The notes below the pieces were generated by a model that was not told where the DNA came from, searched no databases, and saw only the letters and a list, made by a program, of their open reading frames with translations. Below, piece after piece: positions 42,489-57,750 of a stretch of 64,000 nucleotides of DNA; the first letter of the stretch is position 1; every line of letters begins with the position of its first letter. Both the position numbers and the translations under genes were made by a program. Source of the stretch: a virus (lineage: Duplodnaviria > Heunggongvirae > Uroviricota > Caudoviricetes); the IMG/VR virus record IMGVR_UViG_3300042885_000900; one strand, 5' to 3'.

Positions 42489-43235
42489 TTATTGTATTTC
42501 ATTTAAGGATAATGATTTATCAATGTACTCATTTTGAAAATTAAACAATTTTTCTAGGTATCCATTTCTTCTCAATACCTTGAAAACTAAATTTTCATTT
42601 GATAGTTCCCCACCTTTTTCTAGTCCTGAAGTTCTATACTTTTTTAACTTATCTTTATATCTATCTATCAATTTTTTTGCGTCGTCCAATGACTCATCTT
42701 TAGCGTTTTCGATAACATCATCTATGGTTTTCATCCATTCTTCCGATTTTATTTTAACTGATTGGGTATCAATTTCCACATTTTCTTTTTTTGGTTCGCT
42801 AACCCATTCATCAAATAATACAGAATATTCTCCACTACTAAAATGTTTTTCAACATCATCCTGAACATACAATTCAACATCATATCCATATATGGTGATA
42901 TTATGTTTATCGTTATATAAAGTTTTTTTTAATCTAAATAATTCTTCGTATAATGGTAATTCTTTTTCCGAAAATTGTTTAAAATCCACAATTATATGTA
43001 AATCCACATCGGAATATTTTGACCAATTAAAATTTGCCAATGAACCGGTCATTACCACATCGGAGACAATTATATCAACACCCAAAAAATCAATAAACTC
43101 ATAAGCAATTTCTAAAAGACGCTCCCTAACTTTAGGGTTTATCGTTTCTGTTTTATTTTCTTTTGAGTTCCAAAATTTAGGGTTTAATTTGTCCTGTAGT
43201 TTAAAACTTGATAATATACTTTTTAAATTACTCAT
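42489..43235 (-). CDS. Pol-beta superfamily nucleotidyltransferase
   Basis: TGSLANFNWSKYSDVDLH ... VELYV (GS-x-DxD motif). Confidence 0.8.
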   Translation of the reverse strand: MSNLKSILSSFKLQDKLNPKFWNSKENKTETINPKVRERLLEIAYEFIDFLGVDIIVSDVVMTGSLANFNWSKYSDVDLHIIVDFKQFSEKELPLYEELFRLKKTLYNDKHNITIYGYDVELYVQDDVEKHFSSGEYSVLFDEWVSEPKKENVEIDTQSVKIKSEEWMKTIDDVIENAKDESLDDAKKLIDRYKDKLKKYRTSGLEKGGELSNENLVFKVLRRNGYLEKLFNFQNEYIDKSLSLNEIQ

Positions 43236-43918: not shown

Positions 43919-45970
43919 ATGATAGAATCTATGGATGGTAACGAAGGAAGAGGTAAAAACACAAGTATTACCGAATCAGCAACACCAGTGTTGGACAATT
44001 TTAGTCGAGATTTAATAAAATTGGCTGAAGAAGGGAAATTAGACCCCGTTATTGGTAGAGAAAGTGAAATTACGAGAATCGCCCAAATTCTTTCTCGTAG
44101 AAAGAAAAATAACCCAATTATTATTGGAGAACCTGGTTGTGGTAAAACCGCCATCGTTGAGGGTCTGGCAATTAAAATCTACAATGGGGATTGTCCAAGA
44201 AATTTAATGGATAAAAGAATTGTATCGTTAGATATGATATCAATCGTTGCTGGAACAAAGTATCGTGGTCAATTTGAAGAACGAATGAAAATAATTATTG
44301 AAGAATTACAAAACGCACCAAATATCATCGTATTCATTGATGAGATTCATACCATCGTTGGTGCGGGAAATTCATCCGGGTCAATGGATGCGTCAAACAT
44401 CTTTAAACCAGCTCTTGCTCGTGGAGAAATCCAATGTGTTGGAGCAACAACATTAGATGAATATAGAAAAAACTTTGAAAAAGATGGAGCGTTAGAAAGA
44501 CGTTTTCAAAAAGTTGTTGTTGATTCACCAACCAAAGAAGAGACATTACTTATCTTGGAACAATCAAAAGAAAAATATGAATCTTACCACAAGGTTACCT
44601 ATTCCAATGAGATTTTAAATCTATGTGTTGATTTGGCGGAGAGATATATCACCGATAGAGAATTTCCGGACAAAGCGTTTGACATCCTTGATGAGGTTGG
44701 TGCAAGAAGTCAGGTGGAAATTAAGATGCCAGACTCAATAGAAAAGTTGAAACTCCAAGCGTCCGATATTAAACAACAAAAAATGGATGTTGTTAAACGA
44801 CAAGATTATGAGGAAGCTGCAAATCTTCGTGATAAAGAAAAGAGAGTGTTAAATAAACTTGAGTCTGAAAAGAAAAAGTTTGAAGAGGACCTTCTTACTA
44901 ATAAGAAAGAAATCACCATTGATTTGGTTTATGAGGTTGTATCCAACATCACCAAAATTCCAATCACCAAATTAAACTCTGATGAGACTAAATTATTATC
45001 CGAAATGGAAGGTAATTTATGTGATAAGGTTATTGGACAATCTGAAGCTGTTTCAAAAATTGCCAAGTCAATCAGAAGAAATAGAATCGGGATTAAAGAC
45101 CCAAACAAACCAATTGGTTCATTCATCTTTTTAGGGTCAACCGGTGTTGGTAAAACATATTTAGCAAAACAACTCGCCAAACAAATGTTCGGTAGTGAGG
45201 ATAATATGATTCGTGTGGATATGTCAGAATACCAAGAAAAACATACCATATCAAGATTAATCGGAGCACCTAGCGGATATGTTGGGTATGAAGATGGGGG
45301 ACAACTAACCGAACAGGTTAAAAATAAACCATATTCTGTTATTCTATTTGATGAGGTTGAGAAAGCTCATAAAGATATTTTCTCCACACTTCTTCAAGTA
45401 TTGGATGAAGGACACCTAACCGATAGTTTAGGGAAAAAAATCAATTTCAAAAATTGTGTGATTATTATGACCTCAAATGTCGGAGCAAAAAAATTACAAG
45501 ATTTTGGTTCAGGTGTTGGTTTTAAAACTGGGTCAAGTACCTATGTTGAGGAAGAATATCGTAGAGATGTTTTGAAAAAGGAATTAAAGAAATTCTTTAC
45601 TCCGGAATTCTTAAATCGTGTAGACGAGATTGTAATCTTTAATTCTTTAGTGAAAGAAGATGTTAAAAAAATTGTGAAATTAGAATTGGATATTCTAACT
45701 AAAAGATTAGTTGGAATGAAATACAACATCACTTTTGATGGTAGTGTTTTAGATTTAATATCTGATGTTGGATTTGATGAGACCTACGGAGCAAGACCGA
45801 TTAAACGAGCTATCCAAGACAAACTTGAGGATTTTGTATCAGAGGAGATTATAAAAGGAAATGTGGTTGAAAACACCCCATACACAATTATCTCTGTGGA
45901 TAAAGAAATTAAATTTCAAGAGGTTGTTGAAGTTGTGAAAAAGACAAGAAAGAAAAAGGGGGATGTATAA
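43919..45970 (+). CDS. clpC: ClpC/ClpA-type AAA+ chaperone lacking the N-terminal Clp-repeat domain
   Basis: LDPVIGR, GEPGCGKT, FIDEIH, UVR-like QDYEEAANLRD, GSTGVGKT, GVGF (ClpP-docking loop), YGARPI. Confidence 0.9.
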   Translation: MIESMDGNEGRGKNTSITESATPVLDNFSRDLIKLAEEGKLDPVIGRESEITRIAQILSRRKKNNPIIIGEPGCGKTAIVEGLAIKIYNGDCPRNLMDKRIVSLDMISIVAGTKYRGQFEERMKIIIEELQNAPNIIVFIDEIHTIVGAGNSSGSMDASNIFKPALARGEIQCVGATTLDEYRKNFEKDGALERRFQKVVVDSPTKEETLLILEQSKEKYESYHKVTYSNEILNLCVDLAERYITDREFPDKAFDILDEVGARSQVEIKMPDSIEKLKLQASDIKQQKMDVVKRQDYEEAANLRDKEKRVLNKLESEKKKFEEDLLTNKKEITIDLVYEVVSNITKIPITKLNSDETKLLSEMEGNLCDKVIGQSEAVSKIAKSIRRNRIGIKDPNKPIGSFIFLGSTGVGKTYLAKQLAKQMFGSEDNMIRVDMSEYQEKHTISRLIGAPSGYVGYEDGGQLTEQVKNKPYSVILFDEVEKAHKDIFSTLLQVLDEGHLTDSLGKKINFKNCVIIMTSNVGAKKLQDFGSGVGFKTGSSTYVEEEYRRDVLKKELKKFFTPEFLNRVDEIVIFNSLVKEDVKKIVKLELDILTKRLVGMKYNITFDGSVLDLISDVGFDETYGARPIKRAIQDKLEDFVSEEIIKGNVVENTPYTIISVDKEIKFQEVVEVVKKTRKKKGDV

Positions 45971-48281: not shown

Positions 48282-48312
48282 TTTGGAATTATCTAAAAAT
48301 GTATTATCTTTG
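48282..48312 (+). promoter_or_regulatory. Bacteroidota sigma-A-type promoter for tmRNA
   Basis: TTTG (48282-85), 19 nt spacer, TATCTTTG (48305-12). Confidence 0.75.
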
Positions 48313-48326
48313 TATCAGAATAATAA

Positions 48327-48737
48327 GGGGATGACCGGTATTGATTGGTATTATTAATTATTCGGGGCACGTAGTGAGATGTTCTCTATCACTTAAATCT
48401 ATGGGTAACAAAATTCTAAATGGCAACATTTTAAACAAAATGGCTCTAGTAGGTCTTGTACGTCAAGATGAGCTTGTGAACGTAGCGTAAGCAAACACAC
48501 ATTAGGGTCGGTGGACAGATACCCAGTAACAGGAGTCCAATAAGGTGTAATACCACCCGAAGATGTATTAGGAGTCTCGTTCAGGGAGCTACTTCAACAC
48601 AAGTGAACCCGACACAGTTATTGGTAACGATGTTAAAATAGGAACCAAATATTTGTCAGTTGAGAATTAATTGAATAAACGTGTAGTCCTTAATTTTTAA
48701 GGTAAACAAGAAAGGGGTTCGATTCCCCTCATCTCCA
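48327..48737 (+). ncRNA. ssrA: tmRNA
   Basis: 5' GGGGATG pairs with 3' CATCTCC-A giving a G3:U wobble; T-arm AGGGG TTCGATT CCCCT; internal tag ORF 48422-48490; smpB nearby; CCA not encoded. Confidence 0.92.
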
Positions 48738-48761
48738 CTGGTGAGTCCCATCACCTCCACA

Positions 48762-49262: not shown

Positions 49263-49700
49263 CTATTTCAAGTCCCTTTTCATATCTCTCTCTATGTCCC
49301 TCTCTTTAATTGAGAATCTTTTATCGTGTATTTTCTTCCCTTTGGCAAGAGCAATTTCCATTTTAATTAATCCGGTGTCGTTTATGAAGACGCGATAAGG
49401 AACGATTGTGGTACCGTTGATTAACTCATTCTCCAACTTAATAAGTTCTTTTCGTTTGGCTAATAGTTTTCTATCCTTTACGGTCTCGTGGAACGACCCA
49501 AACCCATAATCGGAGATGTTCATCCCCTTTATAAATAACTCCCCGTTATTAAAATAACAATACCCTTCAGAGATGGATACCTTCCCCTGACGAATGGACT
49601 TTACCTCTGAACCAACTAGTTTGATTCCAACAATTAGTGTCTGTAGGAATGAATACTCAAACTTGGCTTTCTTATTGACTATGTTTATTGATTTTTTCAT
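49263..49700 (-). CDS. smpB: SsrA-binding protein SmpB
   Basis: NKKAKFEY, GIKLVGSEVKSIR, RKLL..RKE, GKK.HDKR; ATG 49700 directly follows a TATCTTTG promoter. Confidence 0.95.
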   Translation of the reverse strand: MKKSINIVNKKAKFEYSFLQTLIVGIKLVGSEVKSIRQGKVSISEGYCYFNNGELFIKGMNISDYGFGSFHETVKDRKLLAKRKELIKLENELINGTTIVPYRVFINDTGLIKMEIALAKGKKIHDKRFSIKERDIERDMKRDLK

Positions 49701-49732
49701 AGGACAAAGATAATATAAAAATTGATATAAAC

Positions 49733-49767
49733 AAAAAAAGGTGATACAAATTAATGTACCACCTTCT
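49733..49767 (-). terminator. terminator closing the large ncRNA
   Basis: minus strand AAGGTGGTACA-TTAATT-TGTATCACCTTTTTTT. Confidence 0.7.
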
Positions 49768-49769
49768 TG

Positions 49770-50646
49770 GCTTAATACGATGAGAATACTCGTCTTATTG
49801 AGAATCTTCGGAAGGATTATTGTTTCCCTTCTTTTCCACATTCTTTTGGAATGTAATCCTCAGTGATAATTGGTTAGACCAATCACTCCTTGAGTCGCAA
49901 ACTACTCTCTTATTACTACACTCTCTTTAATCTTGCGAACTAATTAATCCTTGCGGGATTAGAGGTTTTTGGTAAGAATACACATCAACTTGCGGTTTTT
50001 GTGTGCTACGGACATCCCGTAACTAAGTAATCACCTATCATTTACGACTATCAGACACTTTTGCTTTTTTCTGTTTAGTTTTTCACCATATTGAAAATAG
50101 TAATTGTGTTGTGGATGTGTCGAAGAAGGGGTCTGATATAAGCTTTGTTATCTTTTGAACAACAAAATACTAACCTCCTCCGTGTAATGTCCCCATTACG
50201 AAATTTCAAGTGTAGTTCATATTAACATCTTGGTAGATGTTTGATAGGGATAAAATCGACACCACTCGTTCTTTATCTTACCTTTCGGTTTTAACTCAAC
50301 TCTAATTTTGGAACCCGCAATTACACATTTGGAAATATGTTTCTTACTTGATTCCTATGGGTTATTTTTATTGGTGTTCCCACCTCAACCGGACAATCCA
50401 CATTGCCAAGTTAGTATTCCATTTCCCTACGAAGTTATCCTCGGTACTACAGGACTACTAATATCCCACTTGCTTACTCGAGTTCGGTTTCCCAAACCAC
50501 AAAATCACTAACACAAATGATTTCATTTTATCCCCGTTTCCGGGATTATTTAAAGATGATAAGCCACCTATTATCTTTGATACAACACCGAAGTGTTATA
50601 ATGGATAATCTAAAATTTCTAAGAACGTCTTTAAGGTTTCCCTTAA
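49770..50646 (-). ncRNA. large ornate structured RNA (GOLLD-like candidate)
   Basis: ~0.87 kb with no credible ORF, own promoter and terminator, many GNRA/UUCG hairpins on the minus strand, adjacent to tRNA-like genes. Confidence 0.7.
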
Positions 50647-50654
50647 TTGTTTTA

Positions 50655-50684
50655 CAAAGGTAAGTGATTTTTTTCATTTGTCAA
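50655..50684 (-). promoter_or_regulatory. host-type promoter of the large ncRNA
   Basis: minus strand TTGACA ... TACCTTTG. Confidence 0.7.
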
Positions 50685-50711
50685 GCACTTTATAAAACTT
50701 TTTTTTTTCAG

Positions 50712-50802
50712 TGGTATCAACGGGACTCGAACCTGTGACACAGGGTTTTTCAAAACCCTTGCTCTACCAAGGGAAATAAATCTCCCACTGAGCTATAATA
50801 CC
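50712..50802 (-). tRNA. aberrant tRNA (Phe-like) with D-loop hairpin insertion and 8-nt anticodon loop
   Basis: GGTATTA/TGATACC acceptor, TAGCTCAGT..TGGTAGAGC D-arm, AGGGT-TTTGAAAA-ACCCT, GGTTCGAGTCC. Confidence 0.7.
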
Positions 50803-50810
50803 ATATAAAA

Positions 50811-50895
50811 TAATGTGGGTGTATGCTCTACCATCTGAGCTACGGATTTGAAACCGGAGGGATTTGAAACCTCGACACAACACCCACACCATTAC
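50811..50895 (-). ncRNA. circularly permuted tRNA-like element
   Basis: Order on minus strand: anticodon-stem 3' strand, variable GTGTC, T-arm, closed short acceptor, TAGCTCAGATGGTAGAGCA D-arm, anticodon-stem 5' strand. Confidence 0.65.
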
Positions 50896-50967
50896 TTCAA
50901 TGAACTTATTTTCTTCTACAAAGATAATACATTTATTTTAATCTGTCAAATATTTTTTGAAATTTTT

Positions 50968-51177: not shown

Positions 51178-51197
51178 TTTTACTTTTTTAATTTTTG

Positions 51198-51330
51198 TGT
51201 GTCGTACAGGATTCGAACCTATAACCATGCGTAATCTTCTACTTCAACTCATTGTACTTTTGAGTCCGTCACAGCTTGTTAGTATAAGTAGCTTTTCTTA
51301 TACTGTGTCTACCAATTCCACCAACGACAC
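51198..51330 (-). ncRNA. tRNA-like RNA (133 nt; Leu-type D-arm, extended anticodon and variable regions)
   Basis: GTGTCGT/ACGACAC acceptor, GGTGGAATTGGTAGACAC, AGTATAAG/CTTATACT 8-bp stem, ATAGG TTCGAAT CCTGT. Confidence 0.65.
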
Positions 51331-51339
51331 ATATTTTTG

Positions 51340-51432
51340 TAGTCAGGAGAGGAATCGAACCTCTCTACAGGGAGCTACCCGTCATCCATGACCTTCCATC
51401 GGACTCGAACCGACCTTGTATCCAACCTGACT
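51340..51432 (-). ncRNA. tRNA-like RNA with two T-loop hairpins and no D-arm
   Basis: AGTCAGG/CCTGACT acceptor, AGAGG TTCGATT CCTCT, internal TCGG TTCGAGT CCGA. Confidence 0.6.
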
Positions 51433-51584
51433 ATTTTTCGCTAATGTTAAAAACTGAGTCAATCCTCCAAAAAAACACTAACTTGGTACTTACCTATCTT
51501 GGCTCCCCCATCCATTTTAAATATATATTCACCTGAAACTTCAGCGGGTTGTTGATTGACCACTCCCACCTACTCAAGTAGTTT

Positions 51585-54082: not shown

Positions 54083-55117
54083 CTACAACTTTTTAAACTC
54101 CGGTCTGATTAAGTTCCATATGATTTCAGAATAATCTTTTTTATCGAACATCCTAAATAATATCCCTGATAAATGTTTATTTTGTTGTGACACCCACTCA
54201 GCGTATTCTTTTCTATCTGTGATAGGTTCTTTGTCGTTATATTTACCATACATTTTACCATCAAATTTTTTACCAGCATCTTCAGATATTTGGAAATAAA
54301 AATACCTTAATTCTTTTACATAATTTTTAATTTTGGTGTAAAATTCATCCGGAACATCTTTTAATAATTCCATCACATCTTCACCATTTTTTAGATATTC
54401 CCAAACTCCGGTTGTTGATACATTGGTCATAATTTTATGAAGACGCAAATACTCAACACCTTTAACTTTAACTCTATCCCCATTTGAAAACTTCACCACA
54501 AACCCTTCTTGGTTGTTTTTAACCATTTCTTTAAGTTCTTTGAAGTCCTTAATACCATCGTATTTTTTAACCACATCAAACCCGTATTCTCTCCACATTT
54601 CTACATCATATTCTTTTCCGTTTTTATCAAAGGTTCCCAATAGGACTAATCCTTCGTAATCACCGTAATCTACTACCACGCGATTCTGCGGGAATAAAAT
54701 TTCAAAACAGAAAGTCAGATGTCTGAACATAATATCTGTATTATACTTTTTAAGGAGTTCAATACCTTTAATTGATTGGTCGGAAGTAAATGACCCACGA
54801 GTGGCTACCACCCATTGACCCTCATACCAAAAAACCAACAAAAGTGAACCATCCATTTTTTCCCACACCTCAAAGTTTTCAGTTGGTTCAAATTTCCCTT
54901 CTTCAATATTGAAGAATTTGTTAAAACCTCTTGCAACAATATTACCCTTATCATTTGTCACCAACCCCCGACAACTTAATGTTATTTCGTCCCAATAATT
55001 TTCATATTGTGTTGTTTGACTATAATTCCATATAATCAAAGGAAGAGTTGGGTGATTTTGACTTAATAACCACCCATCATCTCTATATTTAACTAATGTA
55101 TCTAAATTAATCTCCAT
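54083..55117 (-). CDS. RNA ligase (T4 Rnl1-like)
   Basis: CRGLV, KFFN, EKMDGSL, TRGSF, FEI, EGFVV, KVK..EY. Confidence 0.88.
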   Translation of the reverse strand: MEINLDTLVKYRDDGWLLSQNHPTLPLIIWNYSQTTQYENYWDEITLSCRGLVTNDKGNIVARGFNKFFNIEEGKFEPTENFEVWEKMDGSLLLVFWYEGQWVVATRGSFTSDQSIKGIELLKKYNTDIMFRHLTFCFEILFPQNRVVVDYGDYEGLVLLGTFDKNGKEYDVEMWREYGFDVVKKYDGIKDFKELKEMVKNNQEGFVVKFSNGDRVKVKGVEYLRLHKIMTNVSTTGVWEYLKNGEDVMELLKDVPDEFYTKIKNYVKELRYFYFQISEDAGKKFDGKMYGKYNDKEPITDRKEYAEWVSQQNKHLSGILFRMFDKKDYSEIIWNLIRPEFKKL

Positions 55118-55895
55118 AATAATACTCCCATTTATATCCACCACAATGTTTCATTGACCCATTTAATACTTTACTAACATTTTTATATGTTGTTGTGGTT
55201 CTAATTTCCCATACCGATGAATAGATTTTTATAATTTCATTGTCCTTGTTTTTTTGAACAACTTGTTTTTTTGTTTTACTATCCCCAATTTTTTTCTTTG
55301 TAATTTCGGATAATATTTTTCCTTTGTGAAATTCTGAAATTTCTTTTTTTCTTTCTTCAGAATGTTTTTTTCCAAACATTGGATTTTTATCCCCAATTTT
55401 AGTTACGCTTAATTTATTTTTAGTTTCATCACTTCGTTTCCTACCTAAATGAGTTTTTTTACAATTTTCAGACATTTTTTTTCTTTCATCATCAGTGATT
55501 ACTCTATTTTTTGCGGATTCTCTAACTTTACTTAACCATTGATTATAATCTTCCTCAGAACGCCAAACTCTTTTTTGTCCCGGCATAGAACCTGAGTCAC
55601 CACCTTCAGAAATGTTTAATAAATTACAACCTTTTTCTTGGTAAGAAGAAATATATTTTTTTTCAATTTCCTTCCAATCGTTTTCTTCAACTACGTCAAT
55701 AAGTTTAATAATTGGTTTTAAGTCCTCTTTCAATAGAGATTTAATCCAAGTATTTTTATGGGTTGTTTTATTATCAGAATTTTTAGCTTTAGATATATGA
55801 TTATTTAATCTAACACTAAGTTTTTTAACAGTTTGTCCTACATACCTAATTTCATTAGTTTTTGGGTCAATTAATACGTATATACTATGTTCCAT
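55107..55895 (-). CDS. GIY-YIG homing endonuclease with NUMOD3-like repeats
   Basis: IYVL.DP....IRYVGQT, RL..H, NPMFGKKHSEE. Confidence 0.85.
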   Translation of the reverse strand: MEHSIYVLIDPKTNEIRYVGQTVKKLSVRLNNHISKAKNSDNKTTHKNTWIKSLLKEDLKPIIKLIDVVEENDWKEIEKKYISSYQEKGCNLLNISEGGDSGSMPGQKRVWRSEEDYNQWLSKVRESAKNRVITDDERKKMSENCKKTHLGRKRSDETKNKLSVTKIGDKNPMFGKKHSEERKKEISEFHKGKILSEITKKKIGDSKTKKQVVQKNKDNEIIKIYSSVWEIRTTTTYKNVSKVLNGSMKHCGGYKWEYYYGD

Positions 55896-55965
55896 AATAA
55901 CCTTTTATTATAAATATCTCGTAATTATGTTTTCGTATTGAATTTACTCAGTATAATTTTTTAAT

Positions 55966-56331
55966 TTATAATGTGGAACAAAATATTAATGTTCCGATTA
56001 ATTGTATGTAATGTAATACTTGGTCAAATCCAACCACCACAAATCCGTTGTGGAAATCTTGTTTATCCCAATATGGTTTTCCAATTCTACTAGTTACAAA
56101 ATCTGTAATCCAATGACAAATGAATGTAATGACGGAGAATATTAAAGCAATTCTAAAATCACTCAAATAAAACCAAGATGCCAACAACCACATTATGGAA
56201 TAAACCCCAACGTGGTATGTTAACCATTTAAGACTTGTACTTTTTCCGGTCGCTTGTTCGTGTGTCTGTAATCCAAAATCAGCTAAGAAGTGAATTAACA
56301 ATACAAATATTAATGTTGTAAATGATATCAT
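55966..56331 (-). CDS. DUF3307-like membrane protein
   Basis: HFLADF.LQ, H..D, DQVLH. Confidence 0.75.
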   Translation of the reverse strand: MISFTTLIFVLLIHFLADFGLQTHEQATGKSTSLKWLTYHVGVYSIMWLLASWFYLSDFRIALIFSVITFICHWITDFVTSRIGKPYWDKQDFHNGFVVVGFDQVLHYIQLIGTLIFCSTL

Positions 56332-56332
56332 A

Positions 56333-56656
56333 TTACCAAGTGTATCTAATGTATTCTATTTCAAATTTATCCCAAACTCGGTAAACAGCCTCTACAAATG
56401 GAATGGACCACTCATCACCTTCTTCGGTAATATATTCAATCACGTAATCCATTCTTTCACCACAATCATAACGAACTATTGTATCGTTTATAACATCTGA
56501 CTGAAAATACCTCAACCAAATATGCCATAGGTCTTTATATTCACCACCAACTAACTTGTGATAATCTCTGAAGTATTGTTCTTCAATACCCATCTCTTTA
56601 CAGATTTCTTTTCGAATATCAAACCAATCATAAAATTCTATCGTGTGTTTTTCCAT
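56333..56656 (-). CDS. hypothetical protein
   Basis: 107-aa ORF. Confidence 0.65.
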   Translation of the reverse strand: MEKHTIEFYDWFDIRKEICKEMGIEEQYFRDYHKLVGGEYKDLWHIWLRYFQSDVINDTIVRYDCGERMDYVIEYITEEGDEWSIPFVEAVYRVWDKFEIEYIRYTW

Positions 56657-57750
56657 TACTTCTCGTTTAATAAGAATTTGTTACTAATAACTTTGAATGA
56701 GATTGTTCTATCGTAACTTCTAATTACAACACCTTCTCTATCAAAGTTTGGATTCAAATCTGATTTACCATCAGCCATCTTTAATAACTCATCAATCGTG
56801 TCCGGTAAATGGAAATGTGTGTCTAACACCGGTACGGTCTCTATACCTAATTCAGTCACCAGTGATTGAAATAAAGATAATGAATCATACTCTTGTAAAT
56901 CAATATGAAACAGGTTGAAGAATCTTACGGTTTGTCCTTTGATTTTATATGGGTTCCCTTGGATACCCTCACCAATAAGTTCTCCTTGAATAGAGATGTT
57001 CGCGTTCTCACCATATTCTCTCATTTTGTTTTCCAAATCCAATTCACGAGCAACTTTCCAAAATGTGTTACCTTCAGTTTCCAATAACTCCAAATTACGA
57101 GAACAAACACCAAACTCTCCGTTATTGTAGTAGAATGTTGAGGAAGAACCATCTAATTTTTCTGTTACATAGTAAGTATGTTTCTTCATTTCTTCATACT
57201 CGGATGCCAAGTTCTGAATTCTCTCTTCATCAGTTTTACGAATGAAACTTGGGAACATACCTTTAACCTTTCCGGCTAGTTCTGCTGGAATTGGTGGTTC
57301 GTACTTAACGATTCCCAATTTTTCAGTCACATCAGTTCCCGGAACCAATTCAATCATATCTGATGGTGAAATAACGGTTCTATTTGGTTCCAAAGCAACA
57401 TTCTCATTTAATAACGTTTCAGAAACTCTATAACCATAACCTTCAAATAAAACAGATAAAGGTAAAATTAATCCTTGGGATACCTGCCCGCGAAGTTTCA
57501 CGGTCCTCAAACGGAATCCTTCTTCATCACCCATTTTCTTATATGAACTCTTACGTAAGAATTCAAATTCTTCTCTGATTGGTAAGAATGAATCAATCTC
57601 ACAATATACAACCAAATCATTTATTCTGTGACCAACTTCTTTTGCCACAACCACTTTCCAACCATCCACGATTGCCAATTCAATCATATCGGCCCCGGGA
57701 ATTTCTTGAATATCACTAATTCTTCTAATACTAGCTAACTTTCTTTCCAT
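56656..57750 (-). CDS. RNA ligase, DRB0094 family
   Basis: RKLASIRRI, GADMIE, KLRGQVSQGL, KTDEERIQN, TEKLDGSS, QGELIG.GIQGN.Y, EGVV, FKVISN. Confidence 0.9.
   Translation of the reverse strand: MERKLASIRRISDIQEIPGADMIELAIVDGWKVVVAKEVGHRINDLVVYCEIDSFLPIREEFEFLRKSSYKKMGDEEGFRLRTVKLRGQVSQGLILPLSVLFEGYGYRVSETLLNENVALEPNRTVISPSDMIELVPGTDVTEKLGIVKYEPPIPAELAGKVKGMFPSFIRKTDEERIQNLASEYEEMKKHTYYVTEKLDGSSSTFYYNNGEFGVCSRNLELLETEGNTFWKVARELDLENKMREYGENANISIQGELIGEGIQGNPYKIKGQTVRFFNLFHIDLQEYDSLSLFQSLVTELGIETVPVLDTHFHLPDTIDELLKMADGKSDLNPNFDREGVVIRSYDRTISFKVISNKFLLNEK

Follow-up and report, generated by a model that had tools for sequence, protein, structure and literature searches.

A full-length GOLLD RNA with a boxA-like leader in the RNA island of an uncultured phage

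The block at 49770-50646 of the window (the whole stretch of phage DNA analysed here, 64,000 nucleotides from IMG/VR record IMGVR_UViG_3300042885_000900) is a full-length GOLLD RNA on the minus strand, a genuine though unremarkable example of a giant RNA already known from phages. It has a conserved two-domain fold with pseudoknots and is accompanied by promoter, boxA-like and terminator signals. The probability that this RNA is a GOLLD that also assembles into a cage is put here at about 0.85. Hundreds of GOLLDs are known, the family forms hollow RNA-only cages, and the structure of a close type has been solved, so that the sequence as such is ordinary. Its modest value lies in the context, namely the leader, the neighbouring tmRNA, the dispensability of smpB as a neighbour and the set of homologues assembled around it.

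Family assignment

In an Rfam scan of the whole window, the GOLLD model RF02032 (1-416) matched the minus strand from 49777 to 50182 with 320.6 bits (E 5e-91), against a curated cut-off of 150 bits, which makes firm what an earlier sequence-only reading had called "GOLLD-like". The other matches above cut-off were a tmRNA (48327-48740, plus strand) and one tRNA, while ROOL, OLE, RNase P and the group I/II introns, which are large structured RNAs as well and whose models had been proposed for the search alongside GOLLD, did not reach theirs. By design, RF02032 describes only the conserved 3' domain (406 nt here) and leaves the 5' domain, which in GOLLDs is variable and about 420 nt long (PMC12286853), outside the model. 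This partial coverage and the variable leader upstream of P1 could point to a new RNA class, as the sequence-only reading had also envisaged, or to a GOLLD 3' domain joined to a novel 5' domain. Either is extremely improbable, since the 5' domain agrees with that of the GOLLD env-38 in motif order and in bridge motifs, and the length from 50572 to the end, 799 nt, is set against a median of 809 nt among homologues. Given the full-model match and the env-38-type 5' domain, a new class was rejected. The block combines a full-length 3' domain, a 5' domain of some 400 nt that is structured and less conserved, covarying pseudoknots and a phage site near tRNA genes.

The two domains were found side by side again in about 35 loci retrieved via SmpB and likewise in the majority of another 119 stretches retrieved via a 5'-domain motif, and all ten of the homologues from these two routes that were tested against Rfam passed the GOLLD cut-off (270-327 bits). 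A BLAST search of annotated phages returned two uncultured phages of 630-640 kb, the tRNA cluster of an Acinetobacter phage and short matches to Streptococcus phage GOLLD. The tRNA cluster of the cultured Acinetobacter phage vB_AciJM_313 (PX050566) contains an unannotated GOLLD-like sequence (L093:2417-3148; 149 bits with a profile built here), and no boxA-like site was found at this locus. As the window's phage is uncultured, its own GOLLD copy alone does not make function testable; the Acinetobacter locus is a possible genetically tractable model.

Table 1. Features of the GOLLD locus and its neighbours in the window, with the counterparts of the env-38 bridges
Feature	Coordinates	Strand	Remarks
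Upstream unit	promoter 50919-49; boxA-like site 50896-50907		Own promoter; heads the YrlA-like RNA
YrlA-like RNA	50803..50899	-	Circularly permuted tRNA mimic; core 50812-50893
tRNA-shaped RNA	50711..50802	-	D-loop hairpin insert; no canonical anticodon loop
GOLLD promoter	50655..50684	-	Bacteroidota sigma-A type, TTG-N19-TAnnTTTG
Leader hairpin	50631..50646	-	GAAA loop; at predicted transcript start; boxB-like position, putative role
boxA-like element	50618..50627	-	One change from commonest homologue form
Variable leader element	50570..50609	-	Helix 50604-09/50570-75 around UUCG hairpin 50581-50600
GOLLD 5' domain	50184..50569	-	P1-P12; env-38 "long" type; predicted cage cap; outside Rfam model
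GOLLD 3' domain	49777..50182	-	RF02032 model 1-416; 320.6 bits
Variable linker	50066..50108	-	A-rich; 43 nt (29-61 in homologues)
Pseudoknot of P1 loop	50560-64 with 50472-76	-	87/87 canonical; z 17.7 and 28.1
Long-range pairing	loop 50396-50402 with 50110-50116	-	Joins 5' domain and linker; covariation
Bridge B1			GAAA at L2
Bridge B2	50440/50434		G and C
Bridge B3			GGAA at L8a
Bridge B4			L10/L12 complementary; register ambiguous
Bridge B5			Invariant UGGU/ACCA
Bridges B6, B10			A-runs in L14 and L25
Bridge B7 equivalent	50064-49992 and 50063-49993	-	87/87 canonical, z 21.7; C-G here vs A-U in env-38, compensatory change
Bridges B8, B9			Self-complementary GC in L21a and L21b; CG in some homologues
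Intrinsic terminator	49733..49768	-	U tract overlaps -33 element of smpB promoter
smpB promoter	49705..49734	-	4 nt before ATG; putatively leaderless mRNA
smpB	49263..49700	-	145 aa; separate transcription unit; PF01668 156 bits
tmRNA	48327..48740	+	Convergent neighbour; own promoter at 48283; tag frame starts 48422

Coding capacity, fold and covariation

The block had been described as poor in open reading frames, and its sole ORF is indeed a TTG ORF of 67 aa on the plus strand (50308-50511). An 85-codon stop-free stretch might be taken for the remnant of a decayed protein gene, the outcome that the sequence-only reading had considered fatal to its proposal, yet the median for the longest such stretch is 75 codons. 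Because conservation shows no three-base periodicity (0.748/0.764/0.756), a decayed gene is excluded; with the strong covariation of the helices also counting against chance structure, the probability of either origin is negligible.

Folding of the minus strand beats shuffled sequences for the whole block (z -5.65) and for the 5' part alone (z -4.18), and perfect stems of at least 7 bp number 29, against 26.6 +/- 5.5 in shuffles. Since this stem count matches the shuffles, the long-range complementarities listed by the sequence-only reading, although present as letters, are at chance level, and such pairings therefore needed a comparative test. The five hairpins it had listed (49946-60, 50224-41, 50280-89, ~50532-44 and 50583-98) all exist. 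Two of the loops described there as stable tetraloops are more plausibly loops that make contacts: ACCA at 50231-34 is complementary to the invariant UGGU at 50261-64, and the loop of the 49946-60 hairpin contains a self-complementary GC.

The comparative test rests on 87 non-redundant phage homologues that are 54-92% identical to the window, with covariation measured as mutual information with APC. The helices covary strongly, those of the 5' domain included: of the 100 column pairs that covary most, 89 are canonical, and among 24 close relatives two-sided changes occur in 116 of 207 predicted pairs. One of the three long-range pairings proposed earlier stands: 50396-402 with 50110-16 is canonical in 76-86 of the 87 homologues per pair and reaches z 12.1 at 50399-50113, where z, as in all covariation scores given here, ignores kinship (effective number about 35). 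The other two were rejected, since the strands involved covary with partners nearby. For 50410-18/50166-74, z is at most 2.8 and the canonical fraction ranges from 0.06 to 0.96 in the 87 homologues, the two strands pairing with 50453-61 and 50144-51 instead, and for 50525-34/50247-56 z is about 0, the strands being parts of P2 and of the 50273-76 helix. Further pseudoknots came to light by covariation at 50131-37/50050-56, 50030-34/49863-67 and 49834-35/49785-86, and the pseudoknots, including 50560-64/50472-76 and 50063-64/49992-93, are each canonical in 85-87 of 87 homologues. The 87 diverse full-length homologues thereby support 5'-domain pseudoknots that lie outside the Rfam model. No tRNA was found embedded in the variable linker (50066-50108), the env-38 counterpart of which is the linker of the cage interior (PMC12286853).

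GOLLD alleles look mosaic in the alignment of close phages (A1, L001-L041), with helices occurring in a few discrete versions that are differently combined, which suggests frequent recombination within the gene.

Relation to the env-38 cage

The env-38 GOLLD was resolved by cryo-EM as a D7 14-mer cage (PDB 9MEE; PMC12286853). The 5' domain of the window RNA is colinear with that of env-38, with the same motifs in the same order, in a comparison made by eye over short motifs against an env-38 sequence that was machine-read from the paper's supplement and contains letter errors. The sequence elements of all ten bridges listed in env-38 Supplementary Table 2 (B1-B10) are present, as mapped by motif (Table 1), and a GC/CG switch in the L21 loops has been reported for GOLLD (PMC12286853). 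Because P11a-c and both L21 loops are present, the window RNA is assigned to the long (env-38) type, and this type together with the bridge elements makes it likely that the RNA forms a cage. The stoichiometry of GOLLD cages varies, with 10, 12 and 14 subunits described (PMC12990946).

Promoter, leader and terminator

The promoter and terminator that the sequence-only reading had placed at 50655-84 and 49733-67 were both confirmed, the terminator here being 49733-68. The promoter follows the consensus of Bacteroidota (PMC2483708), a pattern that occurs at 19 sites in the window against 6.9 expected and precedes tmRNA, smpB, GOLLD and the upstream RNAs; in 59 of 82 homologues it is present no more than 260 nt before P1. 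After it come, in order, a short hairpin, the boxA-like site at 50618-27, a variable helix and P1. Of 82 homologues, 80 carry a boxA-like motif in the 260 nt preceding P1, whereas random windows contain one in 5% of cases, and the core of the motif is shared with the 16S leaders of Bacteroidota (three leaders compared); a leader of the rRNA type is thus nearly universal in the GOLLD subfamily of the window. The closing-helix motif of the variable element at 50570-50609, an element absent from the env-38 construct, recurs in 28 of 87 homologues. In three relatives (L018, L027 and L028) a larger, branched insert with about 27 extra nt stands in place of the UUCG hairpin. A literature search that left most subscription papers outside its reach found no paper describing a GOLLD leader or a link between GOLLD and tmRNA.

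Read from these signals, the host sigma-A polymerase would make a transcript of about 0.9 kb, which might also be reached by read-through from the upstream tRNA-like genes, as no terminator was found between those RNAs and GOLLD. The rRNA-type leader would recruit the host's Nus factors to make transcription processive and to aid folding. The mature RNA of about 800 nt would self-assemble, by way of kissing loops and A-minor contacts, into a hollow cage of 12-14 subunits that resembles the one of env-38. Taken jointly, a host sigma-A transcript, a Nus-recruiting leader and self-assembly into such a cage are highly probable on sequence grounds.

The presence of portal, terminase and tail fibre genes identifies the window as phage DNA. 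Its relatives are IMG/VR contigs of up to 322 kb, and the GOLLD carrier appears to be a jumbo phage of roughly 300 kb, which from the phage type we take to be of freshwater origin. The host is probably a member of the Bacteroidota, since the promoter form and the best SmpB genome matches (Bacteroidota, 50-58%) point there.

The smpB and tmRNA neighbourhood

The RNA had also been proposed to be linked to tmRNA and SmpB, and this stands as a matter of neighbourhood only: smpB has its own promoter behind a terminator and is often absent or far away, and GOLLD shows no unusual complementarity to tmRNA. In the window, smpB starts 77 nt past the GOLLD 3' end, beyond the terminator, and among relatives its promoter mostly accompanies it where 0.3-4 kb of other DNA has been inserted. 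The gene seems leaderless in most relatives, with the ATG 4 nt past the -7 promoter element. The tmRNA of the window, which was missed by ARAGORN and found by Rfam, has a tag reading frame (48422-48490, plus strand) of 22 residues that ends in VNVA.

That GOLLD acts directly with tmRNA-SmpB in ribosome rescue could be argued from the adjacency of smpB, which is 71-94 nt away, in numerous close relatives as well as at two loci with a 48% identical SmpB, and from the position of tmRNA within 6.5 kb of GOLLD in 12 of 14 records that contain both (8 of the 9 not chosen by SmpB), at distances of 110-160 nt in some. Such a direct role nevertheless has a slim chance. Promoters and a terminator separate the genes, the gap between GOLLD and smpB ranges from 71 nt to 4 kb, and neither obligatory co-occurrence nor co-transcription with smpB was found. 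At 39 loci found without SmpB, covering 2.5 kb on both sides and not de-replicated, tRNA genes occur in 27, tmRNA in 14 and smpB in 3; these counts must be taken with caution, since the records are related and therefore not independent. Moreover, smpB is missing from four GOLLD phages that are 92-100% complete and lies 37-98 kb from GOLLD in five distant phages, while no tmRNA was found near cut-off in 8 of 22 GOLLD records and in one close relative it is more than 100 kb away. Direct pairing of GOLLD with tmRNA was rejected, as the longest complement is 8 nt, whereas shuffles most often give 9. The link to SmpB is thus weak, a matter of local gene order, and smpB is not a required partner of GOLLD. 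The tmRNA is the more regular neighbour, recurrent in the way that tRNA genes are, though not obligatory. The simplest reading is that GOLLD, tmRNA and smpB share an island of stable translation RNAs.

tRNA-like RNAs and other neighbours

The tRNA-shaped RNA at 50711-50802 ends 65 nt upstream of the GOLLD leader and takes the slot that is usually held by tRNA-Met in other GOLLD loci. Its extra D-loop hairpin is conserved, it has a non-canonical anticodon loop containing GAAA and an encoded CCA, and it is kept in about 15 relatives; it is probably non-decoding. The adjacent RNA at 50803-50899 has the right topology for YrlA and scores 40.1 bits against RF02553 (E 5e-7), under the cut-off of 69, with a T arm, a closed acceptor hairpin and a D arm within a long stem; 14 other sequence variants occur in the clade. 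No TROVE/Ro60 gene was found in five relatives that are 96-100% complete, and a host Ro60 is a possible partner. Two GOLLD phages of 480-630 kb (L293-L296; G018, W01) encode a TROVE/Ro60-like protein of 488 aa.

Two further tRNA-like genes lie on the minus strand. The gene at 51338-51432, just downstream of a conserved block at about 51435-51500, has a conserved acceptor stem and T arm, with the middle swapped for unrelated sequences among relatives. The other, at 51189-51330, combines a Leu/Ser-type D arm with a long insertion that replaces the anticodon arm, and no homologue of it was found in the loci fetched. Upstream of the RNA island lie two RNA ligases, T4 Rnl1-like and PHA02142-type (54083-57750, minus strand), the first of which is overlapped at its start by a GIY-YIG/NUMOD endonuclease. 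Also near the island are a nucleotidyltransferase-like gene with a weak PF01909 match (42489-43235, minus strand) and a ClpB/C-type ATPase gene that has a Bacteroidota-type promoter of its own (43919-45970, plus strand).

Possible functions

During infection the cage might serve phage translation as a shelter or store for tRNAs or ribosomal particles, working in parallel with tmRNA-SmpB and not as its partner. This proposal is tentative, at somewhat under even odds. It is in line with the neighbours of GOLLD and with cited observations of ribosome binding in pull-downs and of induction during lysis (PMC12286853). Against a sheltering role count the empty interior of the solved cages, in which no cargo was seen (PMC12286853), and the lack of a tRNA in the linker of the window RNA.

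The same neighbourhood could be read differently, with GOLLD acting as an abundant decoy for the host's anti-phage RNases or RNA-sensing defence proteins, which it would soak up, and with the tRNA mimics doing likewise. The non-decoding tRNA-shaped RNAs, the YrlA-like mimic and the two RNA ligases 3.4-7 kb upstream would fit such a decoy, and a multivalent cage would suit a sponge. However, the conserved loops are explained by RNA-RNA contacts, so that hardly any conserved surface is left over apart from the L11a GAAA loop, and we consider a decoy unlikely. A structural part in virion assembly, packaging or lysis, like that of the phi29 pRNA, is highly improbable: the symmetric multimer and the rise in expression during lysis (PMC12286853) would agree with it, but GOLLD sits with translation RNAs, portal and terminase are 11-18 kb away, and the cage is closed and D7, unlike a motor ring.

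Support of phage translation remains the preferred role. A broader version, rather improbable as it stands, would make GOLLD the core of a stable-RNA operon in Bacteroidota jumbo phages that is rRNA-like and depends on Nus factors. This operon would also make non-decoding tRNA mimics and a Ro60-less YrlA-like RNA and would form, with the phage tmRNA, a dedicated module that keeps translation safe from host defence or rescues it.

Comparison with known systems

Among known systems, the window RNA is most readily compared with env-38. By eye, both have two domains, about 800 nt and motifs ordered from P1 to P27, among them P11a-c and two L21 loops, and they share the bridge elements, a variable linker and a site just downstream of a tRNA-shaped phage gene. 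They differ in P11a, a short GAAA hairpin here and a long arm in env-38, and in the upstream gene, which here is a non-canonical tRNA mimic whereas env-38 has tRNA-Met. In addition, the leader of the window RNA, with its boxA-like site and extra helix, falls outside the env-38 construct, and smpB lies directly downstream here. The GOLLD of Streptococcus agalactiae, a dodecamer of 700-nt RNAs (PDB 9L0R; PMC12990946), shares the conserved 3' domain and belongs to the same cage-forming family, but it is without P9, P11a-c and P21b, whereas the window RNA has P11a-c and both L21 loops. For the leader, the counterpart is the boxA of Bacteroidota rRNA operons, a site of Nus antitermination, which has the same core and the same type of promoter upstream. 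The clade of the window carries a one-base variant of it, and here this putative Nus site heads a phage RNA.
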